Counted from the stretch's first letter, positions 3,307-48,778 are shown. The stretch is DNA of 50,417 bases from a virus (IMGVR_UViG_2700989535_000003), one strand, 5' to 3'. Notes: generated by a model from the sequence alone, not told the origin. Made by a program: numbers and translations.

Positions 3307-3882
3307 CTACGGCAGTGCTGGCCATTCAATATCCTGTGCAGTTGATGTATCAACACGGTTCAGCAACACCCGATACTTTTTCCAGGCTTCCAGCAATGAG
3401 GTTTCTTCCTCCGTTGCGATTTCCAGATCTACAGCATCCTGAAGTGGCGCTATATGCTCACTGGCTACCTGCATCAGGCTGTTTTTTGTTTCTTCCGCCT
3501 CCCGAATCCGGAACAGTTTTTCTGCTTCCGTATCCTTCACCCAGACTGTACCGTTCCACTTCTGAAACTCCCCTTCCGGCGATAACCAGGTAACATTTTC
3601 CGGTAACGGACCGAGTTCAGAAATAAATAACGCGTCGCCGGAAGCCACGTCATAAACCATTTTACCCCGATGATCTTCAACGAGATGCCACGATGACTCA
3701 TCACTGTTGAAAACAGCCACGAAGCCAGCCGGAATATCTGGCGGTGCAATATCGGTACTGTTTGCTGGCAGACCTGTATGAGGCGGAATATATGCATCAC
3801 CTTCACCAATAAATTCATTAGTTCCGGCCAGCAGATTATAAATTTTTATGGTCCGTGGTTGTTCACTCATTCTGAATGCCAT
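3307..3882 (-). CDS. tfa: Tail fibre assembly protein Tfa
   Basis: 191 aa ORF immediately downstream of stf, start overlapping stf stop; lambda Tfa-like sequence. Confidence 0.85.
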
Positions 3883-28686: not shown

Positions 28687-28957
28687 AATGTTACCGTAAT
28701 ATGTGAGTATCCATCGACTAGACACTAAGCAAAAAAGCTCCCGAAGGAGCCTTCATTTTCACTTTCTTAAATCTAACGACAGATGGCTAACATTTAAGTA
28801 TTGTGAAATATTATCAAATGTAATCATCATTGATTTACAAAAGATACATTTTGCCCCGAAAGGATTTCTGTCAGAAACATCAAAAGATGATGTTCTATAC
28901 TGAGAACCATGGCAACACGGGCATCTAAAGTGAATATGGTTTGTAATATTTTCTACC

Positions 28958-29173
28958 TCAAAGTGCCACTACATGAACAGCTGCAGGGCCTTTAGGTCCG
29001 TTCTCAATACCAAATTCGACTTCCTGATTCTCAGTTAACGTTTTGAAATCGTTGCTCTGAATAGCTGAGAAATGCACAAACACATCTTTGCTACCATCTT
29101 TCGGCGTGATGAAACCAAAACCTTTTTCAGGGTTAAACCATTTCACTAAACCAGTCATTTTGTTAGACATCAT
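28958..29173 (-). CDS. cspI: Cold shock protein (CspA family)
   Basis: [38 protein letters not shown] - RNP1/RNP2 cold-shock domain motifs; 70-71 aa. Confidence 0.85.
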
Positions 29174-29533
29174 TATTACCTTTTGAAGAAGTTAGCCCTT
29201 GGGCAGAATGGTCCGAAAAAAAATATCAGAGAGAAAAACCAACAAGGAAATCTCAAGAGGTACAAATAATAAAATTATAACAATGACTGCTTCAGATAAT
29301 TTTGTAACAAACCAGAACACCATTAACGCATGATTAACCAACCATAGCAAGGATTACTTTTGTAAAGAAAAACACACGAATGAAACAATAGCTTTATTTA
29401 TTAATAAAACGTGTCATTCTGTCTAATGACCTTTTATCTTACCCTTAAGATTTCAAGGATTTTGACTCATGGAAGAGTCCTTTTTATTTAAATTTCACAT
29501 TCAGCGCTAAAAATAATCCGATTTAATATTAAT

Positions 29534-36022: not shown

Positions 36023-36274
36023 TTATTCTTCTGCAAAAGCTGAAAAGCCTGCTTTTATTCCGATCTCTTTCAGTGCCTGTAATGAAGTGACAAACTCACC
36101 TTCGCGCAAGATAAATCCGTCTGTCACTCGACCATCCACAAAATTAATTAACGCAGCCCCATTCTTTCGCAAACACATAATGCGGTAATGACTAACAAGA
36201 TTTCCATTTTCAACGCACACAGCATAGAGGCCATCTTCACAAAAAATTTTACGCAGTTCTTCGATGTTCATCAT
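36023..36274 (-). CDS. Hypothetical protein (83 aa; Rem-like by position next to hokD)
   Basis: ORF with GGAAG SD; occupies the position of rem in recalled K-12 Qin order. Confidence 0.35.
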   Translation of the reverse strand: MMNIEELRKIFCEDGLYAVCVENGNLVSHYRIMCLRKNGAALINFVDGRVTDGFILREGEFVTSLQALKEIGIKAGFSAFAEE

Positions 36275-36646: not shown

Positions 36647-36717
36647 AGCCTGCTTCTCCTGTCAACGCAAAGCAGAAGTGTCACCTTCGGTGCGAAACAG
36701 AGATGTCATGCTTTGGT

Positions 36718-37005
36718 TCAGAGAATGCGTTTGACCGCCTCGCTATATACTTCCGAGCGTTCTCTTTTCCCAACAGAAATCACGAAAACGACAACTTTCT
36801 CGTCTATAACCTGGTATACAAGGCGATAGCCTGAAGACCGGAGCTTAATCTTGTAACAATCAGGCATACCACGGAGCTTGTTTGCTTCAATCCGGGGTGA
36901 CTCAAGTACTTCAACCAGCTTCTTTTTCAACTGTTCACGTACCGTCGAGCCCAGCTTTCGCCATTCCTTTAGTGCCCGCTCGTCAAAATCCAGAAAATAC
37001 GCCAT
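36718..37005 (-). CDS. relE: Type II toxin RelE (mRNA interferase)
   Basis: 95 aa MAYFLDFDERALKEWRKLGSTVREQLKKKL...; start overlaps relB stop. Confidence 0.9.
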   Translation of the reverse strand: MAYFLDFDERALKEWRKLGSTVREQLKKKLVEVLESPRIEANKLRGMPDCYKIKLRSSGYRLVYQVIDEKVVVFVISVGKRERSEVYSEAVKRIL

Positions 37006-37244
37006 CAGAGTTCATCCAGCGTCACACGTACTGGCTTAGGATTACGAAGCCGTTCTTTCACTATCTCCACAAGTTCAGCATCTTCATCACTCAGGAGTGT
37101 CTGTTTGAACGGCAAGCGTTCATTGTCAGCGATATACTCGAGCATGAGACGAAGCGCTTCAGAAGGAGTTACACCCATTTTTTCAAGCGCGGCGTAAGAA
37201 CGCGCTTTAAGTTCATCGTCAATACGCAGGTTAATGCTACCCAT
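37005..37244 (-). CDS. relB: Type II antitoxin RelB
   Basis: 79 aa MGSINLRIDDELKARSYAALEKMGVTPSEALRLMLEYIADNERLPF... Confidence 0.9.
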   Translation of the reverse strand: MGSINLRIDDELKARSYAALEKMGVTPSEALRLMLEYIADNERLPFKQTLLSDEDAELVEIVKERLRNPKPVRVTLDEL

Positions 37245-37255
37245 GTCTTACACCT

Positions 37256-37281
37256 CTTGTAATTACAAATGTCATTACAAG
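37256..37281. promoter_or_regulatory. relBE operator/promoter palindrome (relO-like)
   Basis: CTTGTAAT-N10-ATTACAAG inverted repeat immediately upstream of relB start. Confidence 0.5.
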
Positions 37282-37574
37282 TATCGCACTACAACATGCT
37301 TAGGGCAAGTCACGAAGGAAGTCAGAAAGTAGTCGTAAGAACGGTGATCACTGTCCGCTTTGTGCCAGGAGCAGCCATTGCTAAGTCCATCCTGTATTGT
37401 GCAGGTCAGCTCATTTTTAAAGAGTCCGGCCATCATCTTACTGGTACAGACACCATATACTTTGTGACGGTCAGGCTACATATGCACAACTCAACTTATT
37501 CATCTATTTTTTGCTTTAGCATGTCAGTGTTGCTTTCTCGTCGGCGGGTGAGCGGTGACCTGACCTGTCGATAA
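37269..37574 (+). CDS. Hypothetical ORF (101 aa; YdfV-like by position)
   Basis: ORF between relB and flxA; overlaps relO; coding status doubtful. Confidence 0.25.
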   Translation: MSLQVSHYNMLRASHEGSQKVVVRTVITVRFVPGAAIAKSILYCAGQLIFKESGHHLTGTDTIYFVTVRLHMHNSTYSSIFCFSMSVLLSRRRVSGDLTCR

Positions 37575-37726
37575 AGGAACGTAGCACGTTTTATGCAACA
37601 CCCGCATGCGGCAGAAAATTATTGCCGAACGTTTACCCCTGTCAACAAGCTTTACTTTCTGAGGCGCGCCAGCCCGCTAGGAAAACAATCTGAACATCAA
37701 ACAATTAATGACACAAGAAATACGAT

Positions 37727-37753
37727 TAAAGATTTTTTTGTGCATGCCGATAG
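37727..37753 (+). promoter_or_regulatory. Sigma-28 (FliA) promoter of flxA
   Basis: TAAA-N15-GCCGATAG matches the FliA consensus TAAA-N15-GCCGATAA; 24 nt upstream of flxA ATG. Confidence 0.6.
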
Positions 37754-37776
37754 TGCTTTTTTAAAAGGAGAAATCT

Positions 37777-38109
37777 ATGTCTGTCACAATTCAGGGAAAT
37801 ACCTCAACCGTTATTTCAAACAACTCCGCCCCGGAAGGAACATCAGAAATAGCCAAAATCACAAGACAAATTCAGGTGCTGACTGAAAAGCTTGGGAAAA
37901 TCTCATCGGAAGAGGGGATGACGACACAGCAGAAAAAAGAAATGGCTGCATTGGTACAGAAGCAAATTGAAAGCCTCAGGGCTCAACTGGAGCAGTTGTT
38001 AAGGCAGCAGGCAGAGAAAAAGAATGAAGACGCGACAGTTCAGCCTGATAAAAAAGAAGAGAAAAAAGACGATACAAATACCGCTGGCACCATTGATATT
38101 TACGTCTAA
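37777..38109 (+). CDS. flxA: FlxA (FliA-regulated protein)
   Basis: 110 aa; AAGGAG SD; coiled-coil Q/E/K-rich sequence. Confidence 0.8.
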   Translation: MSVTIQGNTSTVISNNSAPEGTSEIAKITRQIQVLTEKLGKISSEEGMTTQQKKEMAALVQKQIESLRAQLEQLLRQQAEKKNEDATVQPDKKEEKKDDTNTAGTIDIYV

Positions 38110-38123
38110 GTGACAGCCGTATT

Positions 38124-38150
38124 GTGGCCCTCATCGGGCCACTTTTCGCC
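38124..38150 (+). terminator. Rho-independent terminator of flxA
   Basis: GTGGCCC-TCATC-GGGCCAC hairpin followed by TTTTCGCC. Confidence 0.55.
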
Positions 38151-38375
38151 ATCAGCCTTTTCTTTAAAGACATATTATCTTTGTATCATTTCTGATAGTT
38201 AACATTACAAGATATAAGTAATGGACGCACTCCCAATTAGTCTATTTAAATCGCCACGAGTTTAACTGACAACCCATGATCAATTATGAATTGCAACTAT
38301 TTCTGTAGTCACTTTTGTGGGGACAGTCCACAAAACTGCCAACTTCCGCTTCTTGCTCTTAGCGGACATTAGCAT

Positions 38376-39967
38376 AGGCTATTTACCATAACGCCTCATT
38401 ACGCGCACCGCCCAGACTGACTCAGCGCGTTTCTGGCATATCCCCAGTAAAACAAGTAACAAACCACCCGAAAATGAACACCAGAAACGCGACTTAAGAA
38501 TCTACCCTATGAATGGATATGCACTCAACCGAATCGATCTTGGTTTCAATCTTTTTTATCGGGATCAGGCTTCTTTTTAGGTAACTTCGGGGGCTTAACT
38601 TGCTGATGACTTTGCGTTCGGCGCGTAAGCCAGGGATGGTCAGCTTTAGGTTTAACATAGTATTTTGAGCGTAAATCAATACGGGCATTATCCACTCGTT
38701 CATGGACACTCTTTTCATCATCCAGTGGTATAGGCTCCGGGCCATCAACATACTTTTCCCAGCCCAGCGCTTTCCCGTCATACAGAACGTTAATTTCACC
38801 GTCAAAGTTCTCGCATACAGTAACAACCGAATGCCTAAGTCGATATCCCCGGCTCTCACTGCGTACCTGAAACGCACTGCTTTTGTACTGGAAAGTGAGA
38901 TTTTTAGACAGAACGCGCTTCGCCTGTAGGCTGAAGATATAACCCAGTTCCTCTTCAGAATGGTGCACATCAAGATGAGCATTATCAGTAGTACGAGGCG
39001 ACGTAGCGAACCGGTTGTTATAGGCTTCAATAAAGGTCGGCAACCATGCATTTGCTGTTTCAATATCACTGATATTCTGAAGCCGCATTTCTTTGACCAG
39101 CCTGTCCTGTAGTGTCTGATTGGCGCGCTCTACCCGCCCTTTTGCCTGCGGGCTGTTGGCATGGATTGGCTCGATGCCCAGTGTCTTTATCGCACGAGTG
39201 AACTGGGTCAGCTCACCTTCCCGCTCTGGGTTATTTACCCTGAATATACTGTGTCTATCAGAGTAGAGAGCGAGCGGTACGCCATGATCATTAAGGTAAC
39301 CCCGGAGGGTTTCCATGTAAGCCCGGGTTGTTTCAGCAGGCACAAAACGCAACGCCATCAACGCACTGGTGGCATCATCAATGAAAACGATCAGTGTACA
39401 TCTGGGGCCTCGATTTTCAAACCAGTCATGAGGTGAGCCATCAATCTGGATCAGTTCACCGTAAGATGGTCGTCGCATGCGGCGTTGATATATACGGGCA
39501 ATTTTACGACGGCGTTCACGCCATAACCCCTCTTCTATCATCCACTTTCTGAGAGTTTCAACGGATAAAGATAAACCGTGTATCTCGCGCAATTTTTCGC
39601 ACGCAAACGTAGGTCCAAAATCAGCGTAACGGCTTTTGAGGAGTGAAATTACTGTTGCTCTGAATTCAGTAGAAAAGGAATTATTAGGACGCTTTCCACG
39701 TCGGTGGGAAACCAGACCAGAAGGCCCTTCATTTCTATACCGTTGCACCAGACGTTTAACCTGCCGAATAGAAATGCCAATGCGTGCCGCAGCTTGTTCC
39801 TGAGTAATATGTCGATTAATTGACTCCTGAATAATCTGAAGTCGGTGGAGTTCCTTATGACTCATCGTAACAGTCTCTTTGATCATGAAAAATCCCCCAG
39901 AGAATTGTCTGGGGACATTTTAGAATGGTTCAAAGGGGACATTACAGCTTGGTGTTAACAAATAGCC
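38376..39967. mobile_element. Candidate insertion sequence (about 1.6 kb) with imperfect terminal inverted repeats
   Basis: Left AGGCTATTTACCATAACGCC (38376..38395) vs reverse complement of right end GGTGTTAACAAATAGCCT (39950..39967): 9 identical outer bases then about 6/8; encloses the DDE transposase. Boundaries approximate; no target-site duplication verified. Confidence 0.4.
38546..39886 (-). CDS. DDE transposase (N-terminal HTH + rve/integrase-core domain; IS481/ISNCY-like, family unresolved)
   Basis: 446 aa; HTH (ITQEQAAARIGISIRQVKRLVQRY) and integrase-core region with D..D..E-type spacing (QIDGSPHDWF..., LYSDRHSIF..., KGRVERANQTLQD). Confidence 0.75.
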   Translation of the reverse strand: MIKETVTMSHKELHRLQIIQESINRHITQEQAAARIGISIRQVKRLVQRYRNEGPSGLVSHRRGKRPNNSFSTEFRATVISLLKSRYADFGPTFACEKLREIHGLSLSVETLRKWMIEEGLWRERRRKIARIYQRRMRRPSYGELIQIDGSPHDWFENRGPRCTLIVFIDDATSALMALRFVPAETTRAYMETLRGYLNDHGVPLALYSDRHSIFRVNNPEREGELTQFTRAIKTLGIEPIHANSPQAKGRVERANQTLQDRLVKEMRLQNISDIETANAWLPTFIEAYNNRFATSPRTTDNAHLDVHHSEEELGYIFSLQAKRVLSKNLTFQYKSSAFQVRSESRGYRLRHSVVTVCENFDGEINVLYDGKALGWEKYVDGPEPIPLDDEKSVHERVDNARIDLRSKYYVKPKADHPWLTRRTQSHQQVKPPKLPKKKPDPDKKD

Positions 39968-40145
39968 TGCTTCTCCTTGCCTTTCGGCACGTAAGAGGCT
40001 AACCTACATGTGTCTAGCATGAAATTGGCCTCAGATTAATGTTAAGCGTCTTGCAGGACGCGTAATGTTAACTGGGGCTTTTCTCTATCTGCCGTTGGTG
40101 TTCATGCCCGAGGCAGATAGCCTCAAGCACCCGCAGCAATTTTAC

Positions 40146-40423: not shown

Positions 40424-41455
40424 CTACCAATTGATGAAGTCAGTGATGTTATCCAACATGGTTACAGTAACTTCCCGTCCTAACAAATATTGCCAGTATG
40501 CCTCACGGTCATTTTGTTCACCTGCACCGCTCCACTCAATTACTCTTAAATGCTTAGAGGTTAGGTAAGGCCGAATAAGCAGGTTAAGGTGTTCATCGAG
40601 GCCAGAATAACCAAACAGTATTATTTCTTCTGATTCAAATAATGCAAACTGCAAATAATCCCAGTACGTAGAAAGAACATTAGATGCTGCTATAACTGAC
40701 GGTTTCCTTTTTATATGCGTTAACACTATATGTTCGCTAGGCTCATCCCTGTCAACCGTAAGTTGAGAACGTGAAAGTTTTAAGACGGTCTCACCCTGAT
40801 TAACAAATAGTGGTGAGCCATGCAAATGCAAATAATAACCAAACCTACGATTATATTTCCGTTCGAGCGCTTCGGCGGAAAATCCGTGGCCTAACATCCC
40901 ATCAACCAGATACCCATCATACCCGCTGAATATATCATTATCTATGAATGAGTTGTATAATAATTTGTCATAGTTTAATGTCGCAATATGAGTGCGTGTA
41001 TTTTTTACAAATTCCACTAGCGCATTTTCGAATCTTTGCGGCAACCCTTCACCGTAATTATGCAAACTAGTTGCAACTTTGTGGATATAAGTGGCGGTGA
41101 TTTCGGGGAAGTTTAGTCCATCGTCAGTAAGCCAATGCTCGTTTCCTTCTCCAATTTGCGCAAGAGCCTTACAATATGTGATAGCTTGGTGAAGGGTATC
41201 CAACTCATGTTCCCCTGCCGGTGGACCTTGCCGCTGAAGACAACGTTCGATAAGTTGCTTATGGACATCGTTTAAGAAATTGGATCGATGCCAAATTTCT
41301 GCCAACGCCCTGTCTAAGGAAAAATGAGCAGGATCTAAAGCCATACCAAGACCGTTGCCGAATATTATTAATTTTCGTGCCATATAGGAGGACTCATGTT
41401 GGAATAATCTTGAGTAGCGTAACGCGATACGCCGCAGTTTGGAAGTAATATACAT
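40424..41455 (-). CDS. SIR2-like (SIR2_2-type) protein, candidate NAD+-consuming defence effector
   Basis: 343 aa; motifs IIFGNGLGMALDP (Gly loop), IATLNYDKLLY (TTNYD-like), YLHLHGSPLF (His motif), ILFGYSGLDEH; AT-rich context. Start may be the internal ATG at 41383. Confidence 0.55.
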   Translation of the reverse strand: MYITSKLRRIALRYSRLFQHESSYMARKLIIFGNGLGMALDPAHFSLDRALAEIWHRSNFLNDVHKQLIERCLQRQGPPAGEHELDTLHQAITYCKALAQIGEGNEHWLTDDGLNFPEITATYIHKVATSLHNYGEGLPQRFENALVEFVKNTRTHIATLNYDKLLYNSFIDNDIFSGYDGYLVDGMLGHGFSAEALERKYNRRFGYYLHLHGSPLFVNQGETVLKLSRSQLTVDRDEPSEHIVLTHIKRKPSVIAASNVLSTYWDYLQFALFESEEIILFGYSGLDEHLNLLIRPYLTSKHLRVIEWSGAGEQNDREAYWQYLLGREVTVTMLDNITDFINW

Positions 41456-42262: not shown

Positions 42263-43228
42263 TTATCCCCTGAAACCAGGCGGAATTTCTGTATCCGGTT
42301 CAGAAATATGATTCACACAACGCTGTACAGACGAACGCCCCAGACGGATGACCAGTTCATCCCATTTTTCACGAAGTTTTGACGGGCTCATGATGTTTTT
42401 TACCCAGAATGGATCTCGCTGTACCCGACCAAACATTTCGCAAATTTGTCTGTGGCTTCTGCCATCCAGCATCCGCATTGTGCGCACGTCATTGGCCCAG
42501 GCAGTCCAGTTAGGCTCTTTTGGTCGCATGATCTCGCCATCATCACTGGCTGCCTGTTCGTAGAGACCCACGATCCGCCCCCAGATCCACTGCGCACACG
42601 CCAAATCCTCCCTGCTACCCCACTGGCGTTTTTTCGCACTAAACACAACCGCGTCGGAGTTCCGGGTTAAAAAATCCTGTTCAGTCGTCTGCGGGTCCGG
42701 TTGCAAAGCTTCCGGACGAAAAGTGTTTTTATTCTCTGTAGTAATCTCTGTTGTATTCTCTGTAAGATCATCAGGCCATTTTGACCCGATGACATTGGGT
42801 CGTTTTGAACCAATGGAGCGTTTCATTTTGACCTCTTCCATCGTGTCATTTTGACCTGATGGAGCGGCGCATTTTGAACCGATGGATTCGCTCAATTTGC
42901 CACCATCTAAAAGCTCGCTCCCATAGTTGATCGTGTAGAAATTGGTCATATCGCGCTTTGATTTATTGAGCTTTTCACAACGCAAAAGCCCCAGCGTTTT
43001 CAGACTTGCAAACGCGCGCTTTAACGTTGACTCTGACCAGAATGGGAACTGTTCCAGCCATTGTTCCGTTGTGTTGTAAATCCAGCGAACACCATCACAT
43101 TCCATGCCGGAATTGGTATCTCTCAACCAGTAATGCAACTGCTGCAACACAATGGCTTCATTTAAGCCAATCTTCATCGCAAGCTGTGTGTTTATAACCA
43201 GTGGGCGTTCAGCAAAAAGAAGGCTCAT
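42263..43228 (-). CDS. Replication initiation protein (O-like N-terminus, DnaT-like C-terminal domain)
   Basis: C-terminus ...VNHISEPDTEIPPGFRG closely matches recalled E. coli DnaT C-terminus (...VSEPDSQIPPGFRG); start taken at internal ATG 43228. Confidence 0.65.
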   Translation of the reverse strand: MSLLFAERPLVINTQLAMKIGLNEAIVLQQLHYWLRDTNSGMECDGVRWIYNTTEQWLEQFPFWSESTLKRAFASLKTLGLLRCEKLNKSKRDMTNFYTINYGSELLDGGKLSESIGSKCAAPSGQNDTMEEVKMKRSIGSKRPNVIGSKWPDDLTENTTEITTENKNTFRPEALQPDPQTTEQDFLTRNSDAVVFSAKKRQWGSREDLACAQWIWGRIVGLYEQAASDDGEIMRPKEPNWTAWANDVRTMRMLDGRSHRQICEMFGRVQRDPFWVKNIMSPSKLREKWDELVIRLGRSSVQRCVNHISEPDTEIPPGFRG

Positions 43229-43730
43229 AATTCCATCCAGCTTTTTGTTGGTATTGCTGTCGATACGCAAGTTTGAAAGCAATTGCTTTTTCTATAAGTT
43301 CGTCAGTTTCACGATCCACTACGGCAGGATCAGCAAAAAGCAGTCCGGACTCCACCACATCGCCATATTCTTTGTTTAACCCGGCGATCATGTACGTGAT
43401 GCTTTTTCCGTCACTAATTTCACGATACAACCTGAAATCATTAATCCGGATAGCCTCCATAATTGCAGGCACTAGCGCCGTGAACTTTTCACGCTTATCC
43501 CTGGTGTCGATAGCCTTCCAGCGTTCGAATATCTTCACTCGATTAACGCCAAGCGCTCGCTGATCAACCGCGCCACCTTCATCTGTGACACGCTGAACAT
43601 CGATGTTCGGGCGCTCTTTCAAAGCCCAGAATGCTTCAGTGATTAATATCGTCGCCTGCTCCTGTGTCATTCCTGGTCGACATATCCAGGCATCCAGAGC
43701 CTCACGAGCCTGTTCAGGAGTGATTTTCAT
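43209..43730 (-). CDS. Hypothetical early protein (173 aa; cII-position, YdaT-like?)
   Basis: ORF immediately downstream of the cro-like dicC, overlapping both neighbours by about 20 nt. Confidence 0.4.
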   Translation of the reverse strand: MKITPEQAREALDAWICRPGMTQEQATILITEAFWALKERPNIDVQRVTDEGGAVDQRALGVNRVKIFERWKAIDTRDKREKFTALVPAIMEAIRINDFRLYREISDGKSITYMIAGLNKEYGDVVESGLLFADPAVVDRETDELIEKAIAFKLAYRQQYQQKAGWNYEPSFC

Positions 43731-43941
43731 TGTTCAACCGCCCCGCCCGCTTCGTCTTACGATATTCGTCATAAACCTTGGGATCATACTGAAGCTCGCC
43801 GCCAGATGCCTCCTGTAGACGCATCGCGCGACCTTCAGGAACCAGCTCTTGCCATTGAGAAACAGCAGATGGGTCAACGCCAGCAGCTTTCGCTACTTTG
43901 GCTTTCGTACCGTAAAAATTAATTACGTCTGATTTAAACAT
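43714..43941 (-). CDS. dicC: Cro-like repressor DicC
   Basis: 75 aa from ATG at 43941 (GGAGGTG SD); C-terminus LVPEGRAMRLQEASGGELQYDPKVYDEYRKTKRAGRLNNENHS matches recalled DicC; divergent from dicA. Confidence 0.75.
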   Translation of the reverse strand: MFKSDVINFYGTKAKVAKAAGVDPSAVSQWQELVPEGRAMRLQEASGGELQYDPKVYDEYRKTKRAGRLNNENHS

Positions 43942-43953
43942 CGCACCTCCAAT

Positions 43954-43969
43954 ATTGAGTTTTCTCAAT
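43954..43969. promoter_or_regulatory. Operator palindrome in dicC-dicA intergenic region
   Basis: Perfect inverted repeat ATTGAG-TTTT-CTCAAT between divergent dicC and dicA starts. Confidence 0.5.
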
Positions 43970-44018
43970 GCTAATCACTCAAGGAATCTCAAGTCAAGGG
44001 TTATTAAGATATCTAAAT

Positions 44019-44426
44019 ATGAACGAGAAAACTTTAGGTCAACGCATTAGAGAAAGACGTAAGCAGGTAGGCTTAAGTCAAAACGGTTTAAGCAAAGCTG
44101 CTGGCGTATCTGGCTCATCAATTTCATTATGGGAAAGTGACCATACAGCCCCGCGCGGGCAAAATTTGCATCGCCTCGCCGAGGTATTGCAATGTTCACC
44201 AACCTGGATACTGTTTGGCGACGAGGACAAAACACCAGCTCCCCCTGTTTCACTCGATAGTGCCTTAGACTTATCGGAAGATGAGTTAGAGATGCTGCGT
44301 TTGTATCGCGCACTTCCTAAATCAGAGCAACAAGCACAACTCAGCGAACTCCGCGCCCGCGTTGAGAATTTTAATCGCCTGTTCACCGAGCTATTAGAGG
44401 CTCGCAAACGCAACAAGCATCAATAA
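44019..44426 (+). CDS. dicA: CI-like repressor DicA (XRE-family HTH)
   Basis: 135 aa from ATG 44019: MNEKTLGQRIRERRKQVGLSQNGLSKAAGVSGSSISLWE...LQCSPTWILFGDEDK... similar to recalled DicA. Confidence 0.8.
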   Translation: MNEKTLGQRIRERRKQVGLSQNGLSKAAGVSGSSISLWESDHTAPRGQNLHRLAEVLQCSPTWILFGDEDKTPAPPVSLDSALDLSEDELEMLRLYRALPKSEQQAQLSELRARVENFNRLFTELLEARKRNKHQ

Positions 44427-44488
44427 TCATCCCTTCACAAAATTTTAAAGCCTTACATTTCAATGTATTGGCTTTATCTTGCGCCAAT

Positions 44489-44504
44489 ACTTGAGTTTTC
44501 TCAT
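44489..44504. promoter_or_regulatory. Second operator-like palindrome upstream of the dicB operon
   Basis: ACTTGAGTTTTCTCAT, 14/16 identical to the dicC-dicA operator; between dicA stop and ydfA start. Confidence 0.45.
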
Positions 44505-44618
44505 CAAAAAACCTTGACGAAAAATAATGAGAAAACTAAATTACCTCCATCAAGACACCGCACGGTGTTCTCAGCAAACAGTTCCGCTACCCCGGCGTTA
44601 AGGGGAAATGAGGTCAGC

Positions 44619-44774
44619 ATGGATACTATCGATCTTGGCAACAACGAATCTCTGGTGTACGGCGTGTTTCCAAACCAGGACGGCACGTTCACCGCAATGA
44701 CGTATACCAAAAGCAAAACGTTTAAAACCGAAAATGGTGCCCGTCGCTGGCTGGAAAGAAACTCAGGTGAGTGA
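44619..44774 (+). CDS. ydfA: YdfA (51 aa), first gene of the dicB operon
   Basis: MDTIDLGNNESLVYGVFPNQDGTFTAMTYTKSKTFKTENGARRWLERNSGE; AGGGGAAATGAGG SD. Confidence 0.6.
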   Translation: MDTIDLGNNESLVYGVFPNQDGTFTAMTYTKSKTFKTENGARRWLERNSGE

Positions 44775-44775
44775 T

Positions 44776-45351
44776 ATGGATTTCGACACAATCATGGAAA
44801 AGGCTTACGAAGAATACTTCGAAGGCCTTGCCGAAGGCGAAGAAGCTCTCAGCTTCAGTGAGTTTAAACAGGCACTCAGAATAAGAATGTGCTCTCACAA
44901 TGACGCGGAGCACAAATATGAGAAGCAAAATCAGACCGCAGAAAATTTTGTTCTGGAACCCGGAGAAACGCTTTTCAAAATTCCCGTTACGTGCCCCATT
45001 TGCGGTTTTACATCAGAAGAACTTGACGACTCCTGTAACAATCAGGAAACAACCAAGTATGTCGAAGATGATACCGAGTGCGCACGAAGAACGATTATAT
45101 CCACAAGTCCAAACTCCAGGACCAATAAATCTCACTTTGAGAGGGTGATTAATCCACTCCCCCAAACCAATAAAAAAGATGCCGGAGGACAAAAAACCCA
45201 ATGGAACAACGGGATATCTGTCAAAAAAAGACGTTCCATTAAAGACAAACAACGCAGCGCCAACAACTGTAAGCGCTTTATACCAGTAATCAATTTTCAT
45301 GTTCTTAAGCGGATTTATTGGTGGTTGCGACATTGCTTAATGAATCCTTAA
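44776..45351 (+). CDS. Hypothetical ORF at the ydfB position (191 aa as read; conserved part may be only the N-terminal ~42 aa)
   Basis: ATG 1 nt after ydfA stop (coupled); N-terminus MDFDTIMEKAYEEYFEGLAEGEE..; C-terminal two thirds low-complexity and overlapped by an opposite-strand ORF. Confidence 0.35.
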   Translation: MDFDTIMEKAYEEYFEGLAEGEEALSFSEFKQALRIRMCSHNDAEHKYEKQNQTAENFVLEPGETLFKIPVTCPICGFTSEELDDSCNNQETTKYVEDDTECARRTIISTSPNSRTNKSHFERVINPLPQTNKKDAGGQKTQWNNGISVKKRRSIKDKQRSANNCKRFIPVINFHVLKRIYWWLRHCLMNP

Positions 45352-45387
45352 AACTGTGGTGATTTTAAGGATACCACCTCGCCTGAC

Positions 45388-45579
45388 GTGGTTAAAAGCA
45401 GGCACACAACACGAAAGCGCACGGCGAAGTTCGTCTCACTGTACGGTGTCGTTAAATTTAATTCGACCGTGCGCTTCCGGTTGTGGCAACCCGCAAAATG
45501 GCGCGGCGGTAAGTATGGCGGGGTTATTCCTTCCCCGTTGAGGACACCGAGTTGTCAGGTTGACCATACGCTTAAGTGA
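45388..45579 (+). CDS. Small ORF upstream of dicF (YdfC-like by position)
   Basis: 63-aa ORF in the dicB operon leader; identity not verified. Confidence 0.3.
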   Translation: MVKSRHTTRKRTAKFVSLYGVVKFNSTVRFRLWQPAKWRGGKYGGVIPSPLRTPSCQVDHTLK

Positions 45580-45610
45580 CAACCCCGCTGCAACGCCCTC
45601 TGTTATCAAT

Positions 45611-45668
45611 TTTCTGGTGACGTTTGGCGGTATCAGTTTTACTCCGTGACTGCTCTGCCGCCGTTTTT
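45611..45668 (+). ncRNA. dicF: DicF small regulatory RNA
   Basis: TTTCTGGTGACGTTTGGCGGTATCAGTTTTACTCCGTGACTGCTCTGCCGCC followed by TTTTT matches the recalled 53-nt DicF sequence (1 difference near the 3' end); located between the ydfC-like ORF and dicB. Confidence 0.6.
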
Positions 45669-45837
45669 AAAGTGAATTTTGTGATGCGGTGAATGCGGCT
45701 AAGCGCACGCGGAACAGTTAAAACCAAAAACAGTGTTATGGGTGGATTCTCTGTATCCGGCGTTAATTGTTAACTGGTTAACGTCACCTGGAGGCACCAG
45801 GCACTGCATCACAAAATTCATTGTTGAGGACGCGATA

Positions 45838-46026
45838 ATGAAAACGTTATTACCAAACGTTAATACGTCTGAAGGTTGTTTTGAAATTGGTGTCACTATC
45901 AGTAACCCTGTATTTACTGAAGATGCCATTAACAAGAGAAAACAAGAACGGGAGCTATTAAATAAAATATGCATTGTTTCAATGCTGGCTCGTTTACGTC
46001 TGATGCCAAAAGGATGTGCACAATGA
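45838..46026 (+). CDS. dicB: Cell division inhibitor DicB
   Basis: 62 aa MKTLLPNVNTSEGCFEIGVTISNPVFTEDAINKRKQERELLNKICIVSMLARLRLMPKGCAQ; GAGGA SD. Confidence 0.8.
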   Translation: MKTLLPNVNTSEGCFEIGVTISNPVFTEDAINKRKQERELLNKICIVSMLARLRLMPKGCAQ

Positions 46027-46214
46027 ATTCAGCATTTGCGCTTGTTCTGACAGTTTTTCTTGTTTCCGGAGAGCCAGTTGATATTGCAGTCAGTGTTCAC
46101 AGGACAATGCAGGAGTGTATGACTGCAGCAACCGAACAGAAAATTCCCGGTAACTGTTACCCGGTCGATAAAGTTATTCACCAGGATAATAACGAAATCC
46201 CGGCAGGTCTTTAA
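46023..46214 (+). CDS. ydfD: YdfD (small membrane lysis-associated protein)
   Basis: 63 aa MNSAFALVLTVFLVSGEPVDIAVSVHRTMQECMTAATEQKIPGNCYPVDKVIHQDNNEIPAGL; start overlaps dicB stop (ATGA). Confidence 0.65.
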   Translation: MNSAFALVLTVFLVSGEPVDIAVSVHRTMQECMTAATEQKIPGNCYPVDKVIHQDNNEIPAGL

Positions 46215-46306
46215 AACAGTTCCGTAATAAACATCCGATTTCATTCTTATATGCCAGCAATGGCAGGGATTTGTTCACCCTTAAATCTGTAATGAGGTAA
46301 AACAAA

Positions 46307-48778
46307 ATGAGTAAAGTCTTTATTTGCGCCGCCATTCCGGACGAACAGGCAATAAAGGAAGAAGGTGCCGTCGCTGTAGCCACTGCCATTGAAGCCGGTG
46401 ATGAACGTCGCGCCCGCGCAAAATTTCACTGGCAATTCCTGGAACATTATCCGGCTGCTCAGGACTGCGCTTATAAATTTCTTGTTTGCGAGGATAAACC
46501 CGGTATACCCCGCCCTGCCCTCGATTCCTGGGATGCTGAATATATGCAGGAAAACCGCTGGGATGAGGCGTCTGCTTCCTTTGTCCCGGTCGAGACTGAA
46601 TCCGATCCGATGAACGTCACTTTTGACAACCTAGCCCCTGAAGTACAGAACGCTGTCATGGTTAAGTTCGACACATGTGAAAACATCACTGTTGATATGG
46701 TGATTAGCGCACAGGAATTGTTGCAGGAAGACATGGCAACATTCGACGGCCATATCGTTGAAGCGTTGATGAAAATGCCAGAAGTTAACGCTATGTATCC
46801 GGAGCTTAAGCTGCATGCCATCGGGTGGGTTAAGCATAAATGTAAGCCTGGTGCCAAATGGCCCGAAATTCAGGCAGAGATGCGCATCTGGAAAAAACGT
46901 CGCGAAGGTGAACGCAAGGAAGCCGGAAAATACACGTCTGTTGTTGATCTCGCCCGCGCCAGAGCCAATCAACAGCACACTGAAAATTCAACAGGAAAAA
47001 TCAACCCGGTCATTGCTGCCATTCATCGCGAATACAAGCAGACATGGAAAACACTGGATGACGAACTGGCCTACGCTCTCTGGCCTGGTGATGTGGATGC
47101 CGGAAACATTGACGGCAGCATCCATCGCTGGGCAAAAAATGAAGTTATCGACAACGACCGCGAAGACTGGAAGCGTATCTCGGCATCAATGCGCAAACAG
47201 CCTGATGCCCTTCGCTACGACCGCCAGACTATTTTTGGCCTTGTCCGTGAACGTCCGATCGACATTCACAAAGACCCTGTGGCACTGAACAAATACATTA
47301 CTGAATACCTGACTACAAAGGGCGTGTTTGAAGATGAAGGAACAAATCAGAGCGCAACTGATACTCTCTCGTCGCCAGTACCAGAAACTGATGCAGTGGA
47401 AACGGCAATTCCAGACAACGAAAAAACCGAATGCAAAGTGGAAGTCGAACCATCTGTAGAACGTGAGGGGCCGTTCTACTTCCTCTTCACCGACAAGGAT
47501 GGCGAAAAATACGGTCGCGCAAATAAACTTTCTGGTCTGGATAAGGCGCTGTCTGCTGGGGCTACTGAAATCACGAAAGAAGAATATTTCGCCCGCAAAA
47601 ACGGTACATACTCAGGTTCACAACAAAATACTGGTGCATCTGACACGACCGCACAACCAGGGTCAGTAAAAGTTACCGCTGACGAAGTAAACAAAATTAT
47701 GCAGGCAGCCAATATCAGCCAGCCTGACGCCGATGAACTGCTTGCAGTATCACGTGGTGAATTTGTTGAAGGGATTAGCGACCCGAATGATCCGAAATGG
47801 ATTAAGGGGATCCAGACCCGCGATTCTGTGAACCAGAACCAGCAAGAAACGGAACAGAACGACCAGAAAGCGGAACAAAACAGCCCAAATACGCAACAAA
47901 ACGAGCCAGAAACGAAACAACCTGAACCAGTAGTGCAACAGGAACCGGAAAAGATCTGCACCGCCTGCGGTCAGAGCGGTGGCGGCAACTGCCCTGATTG
48001 TGGTGCGGTGATGGGTGACGCAACATACCAGGAAATATTCGATGGAGAGAATCAGCCTGAAGTTCAGGAAAATGATCCGGAGGAAATGGAAGGCACTGCG
48101 CATCAGCACAAGGAGAACACTGGCGGCAATCAGCATCATGCCAGCGATAGTGAAACTGGCGAGGCGTCAGATCCCTTAATTAAGGCAAACGGTCATCATA
48201 ATCTCACATCCACCAGCAGAGCGGGGATTCATCTGATGATCGACCTTGAAACCATGGGAAAAAATCCCGATGCCCCGATTATCTCAATAGGTGCAATATT
48301 TTTCGATCCGCAAACCGGAGATATGGGACCGGAATTTAGTAAGACTATCGATCTGGAAACTGCTGGCGGAGTCATTGATCGGGACACCATTAAATGGTGG
48401 CTTAAACAATCACGCGAAGCGCAATCTGCCATTATGACCGATGAAATCCCGTTAGATGATGCACTGTTACAATTGCGGGAATTTATCGACGAAAACTCCG
48501 GTGAATTTTTTGTTCATGTCTGGGGAAATGGAGCCAACTTCGACAACACGATTTTGCGCCGTTCATACGAACGGCAGGGGATCCCCTGCCCGTGGCGTTA
48601 CTACAACGATCGCGATGTACGCACAATCGTTGAGCTGGGGAAAGCCATAGACTTCGATGCCAGAACGGCTATTCCATTCGAAGGTGAGCGCCATAATGCA
48701 CTTGATGACGCCCGTTACCAGGCAAAATACGTTTCAGCTATCTGGCAAAAACTGATCCCGAGTCAGGCTGATTCTTAA
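46307..48778 (+). CDS. YdfE-like large early protein with C-terminal DEDDh-type 3'-5' exonuclease domain
   Basis: 823 aa; C-terminal LMIDLETMG...HVWGNGANFDNTIL...HNALDDARYQAKY (Exo I/II/III-like motifs); central Q/E/N-rich linker and CxxC-N8-CxxC zinc ribbon; occupies the exo position of the lambdoid map. Confidence 0.65.
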   Translation: MSKVFICAAIPDEQAIKEEGAVAVATAIEAGDERRARAKFHWQFLEHYPAAQDCAYKFLVCEDKPGIPRPALDSWDAEYMQENRWDEASASFVPVETESDPMNVTFDNLAPEVQNAVMVKFDTCENITVDMVISAQELLQEDMATFDGHIVEALMKMPEVNAMYPELKLHAIGWVKHKCKPGAKWPEIQAEMRIWKKRREGERKEAGKYTSVVDLARARANQQHTENSTGKINPVIAAIHREYKQTWKTLDDELAYALWPGDVDAGNIDGSIHRWAKNEVIDNDREDWKRISASMRKQPDALRYDRQTIFGLVRERPIDIHKDPVALNKYITEYLTTKGVFEDEGTNQSATDTLSSPVPETDAVETAIPDNEKTECKVEVEPSVEREGPFYFLFTDKDGEKYGRANKLSGLDKALSAGATEITKEEYFARKNGTYSGSQQNTGASDTTAQPGSVKVTADEVNKIMQAANISQPDADELLAVSRGEFVEGISDPNDPKWIKGIQTRDSVNQNQQETEQNDQKAEQNSPNTQQNEPETKQPEPVVQQEPEKICTACGQSGGGNCPDCGAVMGDATYQEIFDGENQPEVQENDPEEMEGTAHQHKENTGGNQHHASDSETGEASDPLIKANGHHNLTSTSRAGIHLMIDLETMGKNPDAPIISIGAIFFDPQTGDMGPEFSKTIDLETAGGVIDRDTIKWWLKQSREAQSAIMTDEIPLDDALLQLREFIDENSGEFFVHVWGNGANFDNTILRRSYERQGIPCPWRYYNDRDVRTIVELGKAIDFDARTAIPFEGERHNALDDARYQAKYVSAIWQKLIPSQADS

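Follow-up and report, generated by a model that had tools for sequence, protein, structure and literature searches.

A dicC/dicA immunity switch and dicBF operon of the mEp460 type in a Qin-locus prophage of Escherichia coli, with four predicted repressor operators

Which repressor would keep the DicF-DicB operon silent in an Escherichia coli prophage whose immunity region is not that of strain K-12, and on which DNA sites would it act? The question is raised by the region between 43.7 and 46.3 kb of the viral sequence IMGVR_UViG_2700989535_000003, whose whole analysed stretch of 50,417 nucleotides (nt) is called the window below. The answer that we consider very probable is that this region is the dicC/dicA immunity switch and the early-left (dicBF) operon of a Qin-locus lambdoid E. 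coli prophage of the mEp460_ev081/HannyBb immunity type, with a repressor that would act on 16-bp operators. An earlier note, made from the sequence alone, had named a Cro-like dicC, a divergent CI-like dicA, DicF, a small RNA (sRNA), and DicB, and the Rfam, Pfam and NCBIfam matches given below agree with these names; the identity of all the parts of the switch and of the operon is established here. The module is a known system and a common natural allele, already found in the literature (PMC10448788). What we add to it is small: an allele-specific map of four operators with the co-variation of the recognition helix, the frequency and probable neutrality of a DicF allele carrying a G, and an overlooked antisense gene.

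One end of the window lies in the host gene ydfJ, which is truncated, and the other coincides with the final base of the integrase gene (int); the window therefore corresponds to the whole Qin-locus prophage of another strain. In strain S30, the matching stretch adjoins rspB, which is the position of the cryptic prophage Qin in K-12; S30 was dropped as a full-length reference because its prophage is degraded and matches the window only in part. The 2.6 kb from 43700 to 46300 are found at 100% identity in many complete E. coli chromosomes, and at least 80% of this stretch is present in 406 of 5426 genomes. The right half of the window is 96-97% identical, over 57-72% of the length, to the records of PhiR42_1, HannyBb and mEp460_ev081. 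The repressor encoded in the window is 100% identical to those of the phages HannyBb (PP925841) and mEp460_ev081 (LR597641), the latter being a functional temperate phage that carries dicB, dicF, dicAC and rem (Ragunathan et al. 2023, PMC10448788).

The repressor gene (44019-44426, plus strand) encodes 135 amino acids that cover positions 1-135 of the 135 of the NCBIfam DicA model NF007257, with 239.4 bits for a cutoff of 101. All its Pfam matches are overlapping helix-turn-helix (HTH) families of the Cro/CI type, HTH_3 being the best, and the Pfam search found no Peptidase_S24 autocleavage domain in it. Its alignment with K-12 DicA extends over the full length of the protein and shows 57% identity overall, with 40% in the HTH helices, 100% in the segment VLQCSPTWILFGDEDK and 56% in the C-terminal part; the recognition helix reads SGSSISLWE in the window and SHVSVSQWE in K-12. 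The name dicA proposed by the earlier note is thus right for the family and not for the allele, and these differences support the view that the window repressor would be heteroimmune relative to that of K-12 Qin. Divergently from it lies dicC (43714-43941, minus strand, 75 amino acids), which matches Pfam P22_Cro (PF14549, 61.6 bits) and NCBIfam DicC (NF007282, 167.6 bits, cutoff 130) and whose product is 71% identical to K-12 DicC, the C-terminal half being identical and the N-terminal HTH part diverged.

The palindrome seen by the earlier note between these two genes is indeed perfect: ATTGAGTTTTCTCAAT, ATTGAG-TTTT-CTCAAT, at 43954-43969. This predicted operator, O1, lies 13 nt upstream of the dicC ATG and overlaps the -10/+1 region of a dicC promoter-like site (43968-43997, minus strand) predicted by a consensus scan, with a -35 TTGACT at 43997-43992 and a -10 TAGCAT at 43973-43968. 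Its place is equivalent to that of the K-12 operator Oc, TTGTTAGTCATAACTAACAA, located 16 nt upstream of the K-12 dicC ATG. At the other end of the repressor gene, the predicted promoter of the dicB operon (44514-44542, plus strand; -35 TTGACG at 44514-44519, 17-nt spacer, -10 TAAATT at 44537-44542, transcription start estimated at about 44547) has the same geometry as the K-12 promoter TTGACC-17-TAATCT. The single 14/16 copy of the palindrome which had been reported upstream of ydfA exists there, as the predicted operator OB2 (44526-44541, AATGAGAAAACTAAAT; minus-strand ATTTAGTTTTCTCATT, in inverse orientation with 2 mismatches), covering the spacer and the -10 of this promoter, but it is not alone. 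The predicted operator OB1 (44490-44505, CTTGAGTTTTCTCATC), with 3 mismatches (13/16) and the exact 13-nt core TTGAGTTTTCTCA, is located 9 nt upstream of the -35, and OB1 and OB2 bracket the -35 hexamer. A fourth, operator-like site, O2 (44003-44018, ATTAAGATATCTAAAT), the equivalent of K-12 Oa, abuts the dicA ATG. In K-12, the sequence is TTTAGCATTAGCTAAC at the place of O2, GTTAGCTATAGCATAC at the same distance from the dicB -35 as OB1, and GTTAGTCATGGCTAAT at the place of OB2.

How much weight can such palindromes bear? The window contains 27 perfect palindromes of the form 6-N4-6, against 12 +/- 3.4 in shuffled sequences, so that a perfect palindrome is weak evidence when taken alone; it was rejected as stand-alone evidence, and the loose core TGAG-N4-CTCA is not enriched. 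What counts is recurrence and placement. When the whole 50.4-kb window is searched for the O1 16-mer with up to 3 mismatches, three sites are found, all of them in the switch region, for a chance expectation of 0.63 per 50 kb, and the core shared by OB1 and O1 is the sole 13-mer repeated within 43900-44650. These sites suggest repressor operators of the form A-TTGA-GTTTTC-TCAA-T.

The comparison with relatives, obtained by scanning one genome per species for repressors 44-100% identical to that of the window, carries the argument further. The repressors of Buttiauxella ferragutiae and B. gaviniae are 76% and 74% identical, with a helix VSDSSISLWES where the window has VSGSSISLWES, and both species keep all four sites: ATTGAGTTTTCTCAAT or CCTGAGTTTTCTCAAT next to dicC (the 16-mer of B. 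ferragutiae being identical to O1), ATTAAGATATCTAAAT at the dicA ATG, xxTGAGTTTTCTCAAT upstream of the -35, and TTGAGAAAACTAA in the spacer and -10. Few runs stay invariant when the window is aligned with Buttiauxella, the operator cores and the -35 blocks among them, and the surrounding bases vary. The invariant runs include TGAGTTTTCTCA of OB1 in the three-way alignment, TGAGAAAACTAA of OB2 and, in an alignment that also contains Citrobacter, the GTCAAG block that forms the dicC -35 on the other strand. The core of O2, ATTAAGATATCTAAA, does not vary between the window, the two Buttiauxella and Citrobacter braakii; at the 16th base, Citrobacter has a C. At each of these four places, and with nearly equal spacings, the K-12 locus presents a motif of its own, (G)TTAG-N6-CTAA(C): from centre to centre, the distance between the two sites of the dicB promoter is 35 bp in K-12 and 36 bp in the window, and that between the two sites of the divergent region 50 bp and 49 bp, respectively.

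The motif is specific to each class of repressor. The helix SHV[ST][VI]SQWE, found in K-12, PPompW of enterohaemorrhagic E. coli, a Klebsiella phage, a Citrobacter sp. and Rosenbergiella, goes with (G/C)TTAG-N6-CTAA(C/G); the helix SSVSVFKWE of the Cronobacter phage phiES15, E. whittamii and the Enterobacteriaceae bacterium LSJC7 goes with TAAC-N4-GTTA; and the helix SHATISLWE of Citrobacter braakii goes with GTTGAG half-sites. On these alignments, the operator motif changes together with the recognition helix across classes, which gives strong computational support to the four sites as predicted operators of this type of repressor. The proposal of the earlier note that DicA would repress both promoters through the palindromes thus receives strong support from the position equivalent to Oc, from the conservation in Buttiauxella and from the motif that tracks the helix.

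The same comparison bears on a purely RNA-based explanation, in which the palindromes would be hairpins, for example a dicA terminator at 44490-44505 or a structure of the dicC leader, and not DNA sites bound by a protein. Each site can indeed form a stem of 5-6 bp with a loop of 4 nt, and OB1 is located 64 nt downstream of the dicA stop codon. Nevertheless, OB1 is not followed by a U-run (the next bases are TCAAAAAACC) and the terminator scan is empty there, OB2 is inverted and overlaps a -10, and what Buttiauxella conserves is the sequence itself, the loop TTTT included, with no compensatory change in the stems. Since, moreover, the same positions carry in the other immunity classes motifs that are class-specific and match the repressor helix, we regard this explanation as extremely improbable; as RNA terminators, the palindromes were rejected on the first and third of these grounds. 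As a separate observation, a block TTTCAATGT(A/G)TTG at 44453-44470, between the dicA stop codon and OB1, is invariant with Buttiauxella and included in an imperfect palindrome TTACAT-TTCA-ATGTAT; it may serve as a weak terminator of dicA or as a further site for binding.

A second alternative deserves more attention, and we hold it as a serious possibility, if a clearly minor one: the palindromes would be mainly sites for the Cro-like DicC, or sites shared by the two proteins as in lambda with DicC preferring O2, and not specifically DicA operators. The two proteins of a lambda-type switch work on one common set of operators. In DicC, the N-terminal HTH part has diverged from K-12 and belongs, like the repressor, to the swapped cassette, so that it may have changed together with the sites, and the core of O2 remains invariant even in Citrobacter braakii, whose O1 differs. 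The K-12 site Oa is not bound by DicA in vivo (PMC3441716), and for this reason O2 may be either a weak site or one preferred by DicC. On the other hand, the K-12 equivalent of O1 binds DicA directly, deletion of dicA derepresses the dicB promoter dicBp and deletion of dicC does not (PMC3441716, PMC10448788), and it is the recognition helix of DicA that the motif follows across classes. The alternative is in fact a refinement of the DicA-operator explanation, not an exclusive competitor of it.

How did this combination of a foreign repressor and a familiar operon arise? BLAST of the window against the K-12 locus divides the region into five segments. Three of them are close to K-12: 43693-43842 (97%, the end of a YdaT-like gene and the 3' half of dicC), 44548-44876 (99%, the leader, ydfA and the 5' part of ydfB) and 45394-46328 (96%, the DicF precursor, DicF, dicB and ydfD). 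Between them lie a strongly diverged immunity cassette (43843-44547) and a replacement cassette unrelated to K-12 (44877-45393). The former coincides with the stretch that holds the N-terminal HTH part of DicC, the region of the divergent promoters, the whole of dicA and the dicB promoter, and it ends within 1-2 bases of the presumed transcription start of the dicB operon, K-12 identity resuming at 44548. In K-12, we deduce this start from the RNase III cut at 813/814 and the 190-nt DicF species described there (PMC10448788). Judged from these alignments, the mosaic pattern is that of a classic immunity-region swap between lambdoid phages.

The mechanism that we propose for the window allele combines these predicted sites with the model established in K-12. 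In the lysogen, the short CI-like repressor of the DicA family, devoid of an autocleavage domain, would occupy the operators. At O1, it would cover the -10/+1 of the dicC promoter and switch off dicC and the replication genes behind it and, by analogy with K-12, it would help the transcription of dicA, whose promoter is weak and poor in consensus. Bound at OB1 and OB2, it would flank the -35 and cover the spacer and the -10, thereby silencing the ydfA-DicF-dicB-ydfD transcript. Since the repressor lacks a cleavage domain, induction should go via Rem, an antirepressor of the same prophage that would remove the repressor; another route to derepression would be the spontaneous flip that depends on DicC and is known from K-12 (PMC10448788). 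The gene rem is present in the window (36023-36274, minus strand) and 80 of the 83 residues of its product (96%) are those of K-12 Rem. Once derepressed, the polycistronic RNA would be cut by RNase III as well as RNase E, a hairpin and a U-run setting the 3' end of DicF; DicF would block the translation of ftsZ, DicB would act with MinC to block division and the ManXYZ-dependent entry of phages, and translation of YdfD would begin at a start codon overlapping the dicB stop codon. The binding of the repressor to its sites, the promoter starts, the action of Rem and the processing of the RNA are taken by analogy from K-12, where Oc binds DicA in vivo, loses this binding by a change of one base and mediates both dicC repression and dicA activation (Yun et al. 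2012, PMC3441716), and where deletion of dicA derepresses dicBp 22-fold (PMC10448788).

Several points weigh against this reading. Every functional statement on the window allele would stand or fall with homology. OB1 (13/16) and OB2 (14/16) are imperfect, and their half-sites differ at the third position. In the in-vivo assay, K-12 DicA bound only Oc, and neither Om nor Oa (PMC3441716), so that O2 may not be a DicA site. The antisense gene located inside the operon, which is described below, could alter the amounts of DicF and DicB relative to K-12. Finally, Rem is nearly identical to K-12 Rem, yet in its DNA-binding part the repressor reaches no more than 40% identity, and the action of Rem on the window repressor is putative. 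This last discrepancy hints that Rem may target a conserved part of the repressor, such as the fully conserved segment VLQCSPTWILFGDEDK, and that Qin-type prophages of different immunity could induce each other.

What, then, does this switch control? The operon leader (44548-44618, plus strand) is 99% identical to that of K-12 and contains the invariant sequence GTTCCGCT and two hairpins, ACACC/GGTGT at 44555-44568 and CCCC/GGGG at 44590-44605. In 9 lineages that differ in immunity class, the two hairpins are found again with other sequences in their stems; RNAalifold gives weak covariation and the folds of the individual sequences retain the two hairpins. The leader has no match among Rfam families and no annotation in any phage record. 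Its assignment as a put RNA of the HK022 type was not supported, as it does not resemble the HK022 putL region on reading and no second copy was found in the window; no N-like gene stands at the head of the operon. The leader may be an antitermination or a processing element. It is followed, on the plus strand, by ydfA (44619-44774; DUF1391, Pfam 98.5 bits), 100% identical to K-12 YdfA, and by the 5' part of a ydfB truncated with respect to K-12 (44776-44876), annotated by RefSeq as a pseudogene, whose first 34 residues are identical to those of K-12 YdfB; the K-12 homology stops at 44876 and the frame remains open to 45351. At the distal end, dicB (45838-46026, plus strand, 62 amino acids) matches Pfam DicB (PF05358, 136.8 bits) and NCBIfam NF049927 (132.8 bits, cutoff 100) and is identical to K-12 in 62 of 62 residues. 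The gene ydfD (46023-46214, plus strand; DUF1482 lysis protein, Pfam 90.1 bits) shares 61 of 63 residues with K-12, and the ATGA by which its start overlaps the dicB stop codon is found at 46023-46026, as the earlier note had stated.

That note had also placed DicF, dicB and ydfD in one operon. The identities of these genes stand, but the operon is not collinear with that of K-12: from 44877 to about 45410, a replacement cassette, or moron, of about 0.5 kb without similarity to K-12 takes the place of the 3' end of ydfB and of ydfC. It is present in 806 of the 5426 complete E. coli genomes (about 15%), where nearly always only "ydfB" is annotated beneath it and RefSeq shows a ydfB pseudogene. 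On the minus strand of this cassette, antisense to the dicBF operon, a conserved and usually unannotated gene (45013-45333) encodes a membrane protein of 106 amino acids. This protein has 60 homologues, down to 36% identity (Yersinia, Herminiimonas, Reinekea, metagenomes), and the invariant residues of the family fall in two conserved blocks with the consensus DYWYKA and GLGEWINHPL. Its AlphaFold2 model is a confident one and consists of three long helices with a mean predicted local distance difference test score of 84. No match was found in Pfam, PHROG, PADLOC or NCBIfam, and a fold search against viral structures gave nothing significant (best E 0.06).

Is this minus-strand gene the real gene of the cassette? 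The phage annotators have called a 205-residue open reading frame on the plus strand instead (191 or 205 amino acids, from 44734 or 44776 to 45351, phrog_35040). We rejected the plus-strand frame because only the minus-strand protein has distant homologues and because the substitutions fall mainly at its third codon positions (38:22:55 for positions 1, 2 and 3); the identity of the cassette in protein frames is 58% in the sense of the minus-strand gene versus 39% in the antisense. Dual coding of the region was likewise not supported, the antisense protein being poorly conserved (36-41%). Apart from this, the codon-aligned plus frame opposite the gene (44776-45351) is stop-free in the window and in homologues only 51-58% identical (metagenomic prophages, Yersinia) and contains 5-17 stops in the distant chromosomal homologues, and the sense gene entirely avoids the codons TTA, CTA and TCA.

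In other enterobacterial prophages, the homologues of this gene are located, as in the window, between the gene of a CI-like repressor and the early-left operon, to which their orientation is opposite. The upstream region of the gene is conserved across these contexts, with an extended -10-like TGGTATCCT and a TTTAAC 17 nt upstream, and a hairpin with a T-rich tail lies 3' of it. Distant homologues were checked in Herminiimonas, in Reinekea and on two contigs of metagenome or draft-genome origin; they are found among non-phage genes, which indicates that the family is not phage-specific. We therefore advance, with considerable reserve, the idea that the dicBF operon is not the simple unit known from K-12: the antisense gene would be a moron expressed in the lysogen, for example for superinfection exclusion or membrane defence, and convergent transcription might damp leaky DicF and DicB expression. 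The exclusion or defence role is a guess.

Downstream of the cassette, the 53-nt DicF sRNA (45611-45663, plus strand) passes the covariance-model check with 72.5 bits over 45612-45663, for a gathering score of 48, against the full-length Rfam model RF00039 (positions 1-52). Inside the operon it precedes dicB by 174 nt, and its 3' end is formed by a hairpin of -16.6 kcal/mol followed by a U-run (UUUUU, 45664-45668). The 5' part of its precursor, which in K-12 belongs to the 190-nt RNase III species, occupies 45474-45610 of the plus strand, and the stretch 45463-45700 shows only 4 differences from K-12. As the precursor is nearly unchanged, the RNase III/RNase E pathway (PMC10448788, PMC5069750), demonstrated for K-12 only (PMC10448788), should apply by analogy. 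The spacer between DicF and dicB is covered by a match (45661-45870) to the Rfam sRNA family STnc100 that stays below the threshold, with 34.5 bits for a gathering score of 47.

Could this DicF differ in function from that of K-12? The two RNAs share 52 of 53 nt, and the single 3' difference that the earlier note had pointed out is confirmed as a change of C to G at 45663 (...CTGCCGCCC-TTTTT in K-12, ...CTGCCGCCG-TTTTT in the window). Its suggestion that the terminator stem might be affected finds no support, since the position is the unpaired last one of the Rfam model, just outside the stem, and the minimum-energy fold is the same for both alleles (-16.6 kcal/mol for the window G, -15.9 kcal/mol for the K-12 C). 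In the RNAduplex prediction with the ftsZ leader, nucleotide 53 is also unpaired in both alleles (-38.9 vs -38.5 kcal/mol). A disruption of the stem or of the ftsZ pairing was rejected on these predictions. One may still imagine that the variant acts on termination efficiency, on the choice of the 3' end or on Hfq binding and that the allele sets another DicF:DicB ratio: the base lies directly between the terminator stem and the U-run, where a G could add a closing U-G pair, the hairpin of the G allele is predicted to be 0.7 kcal/mol more stable, and DicF uses its 3' region to pair with ftsZ and pykA (PMC5069750). We consider this improbable in view of the unchanged minimum-energy structure, of the unpaired position in the ftsZ duplex and the Rfam model, and of the frequency of the G allele, which is that expected of a tolerated polymorphism. 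By megablast with 55-mers centred on the variant and an exact word of 28 nt, so that a match requires identity of the central base, the G allele is found in 959 of the 5426 complete E. coli genomes (about 18%) and the C allele in 3935. These counts and the folding and duplex models indicate that the C-to-G change is a common and probably neutral polymorphism.

The gene order given here is taken from the listing of open reading frames and from a reading of 43000-47500, in which the switch and the operon are flanked by the YdaT-like gene (43209-43730, minus strand) and by an exonuclease gene (46307-48778, plus strand). Elsewhere in the window, a SIR2-like protein is encoded at 40424-41383 on the minus strand (Pfam SIR2_2, 26.7 bits; weak PADLOC matches to Aga_SIR2 and PDC-S21), between a hok/sok region and the replication genes, and it is a candidate defence cargo of the prophage. 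A sok RNA match lies at 39961-40132. The 3.3 kb from 36660 to 39962, absent from strain S30, contain relBE-like toxin-antitoxin genes (36718-37244), flxA (37777-38109) and an insertion sequence (IS) transposase gene (38546-39886). Two other Rfam matches are above threshold: IS009 at 3341-3539 (226 bits), and the cspA thermoregulator at 28912-29328 (110 bits), presumably the leader of a prophage cold-shock gene.

In conclusion, this locus re-identifies a textbook prophage module, and as such it changes little. The natural swap of a recognition helix together with four operators nevertheless provides a ready-made heteroimmune pair of DicA repressors, of the K-12 and the mEp460 types, in which the remainder of the operon and Rem are nearly identical. 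Which part of DicA does Rem recognize, and do Qin-family prophages of different immunity induce each other? Such a pair makes both questions easier to ask. Moreover, the antisense gene, present in about 15% of the complete E. coli genomes, should be reckoned with wherever the expression of DicF and DicB is studied in strains other than K-12.

Among the known systems, the solved structure nearest to the window repressor is the N-terminal domain of the P22 C2 repressor (1ADR, 2R1J; E ~1e-15). The P22 helix is SNVAISQWE where the window has SGSSISLWE, with four differences (N to G, V to S, A to S, Q to L), and residues of the C2 helix at these positions reportedly contact bases in the 2R1J work. 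The P22 immC region further resembles the present switch by the match of DicC to Pfam P22_Cro and by symmetric operators with a non-contacted centre. It differs in that C2 has 216 residues with a RecA-sensitive C-terminal domain, whereas the DicA-type repressors have 135 residues and no such domain (PMC10448788). Another related system is GfoR/GfoA of the Gifsy prophages of Salmonella, where a small antirepressor inactivates a short, non-cleavable repressor, and it was by this logic that Rem was discovered; the Gifsy antirepressors are however controlled by LexA, and the signal for Rem is not known (PMC10448788). The phages mEp460_ev081 and HannyBb have operator regions that match that of the window and share with it dicC, DicF, dicB and ydfD. 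HannyBb also has the antisense cassette, whereas mEp460_ev081 lacks it and carries another segment between ydfA and DicF; unlike both, the window represents an integrated prophage, which carries an IS insertion as well as additional cargo genes. With the K-12 Qin locus, the window shares the chromosomal site next to rspB, the order dicC, dicA, ydfA, ydfB, DicF, dicB, ydfD, identical DicB and YdfA proteins, the four-site geometry of promoters and operators, and the operon leader. It departs from it by the swapped immunity cassette, with operators TTGA-N6-TCAA in place of TTAG-N6-CTAA, by the cassette with an antisense membrane-protein gene that replaces ydfC and the 3' end of ydfB, and by a far more complete prophage, 50 kb in length with int, xis and exo intact.

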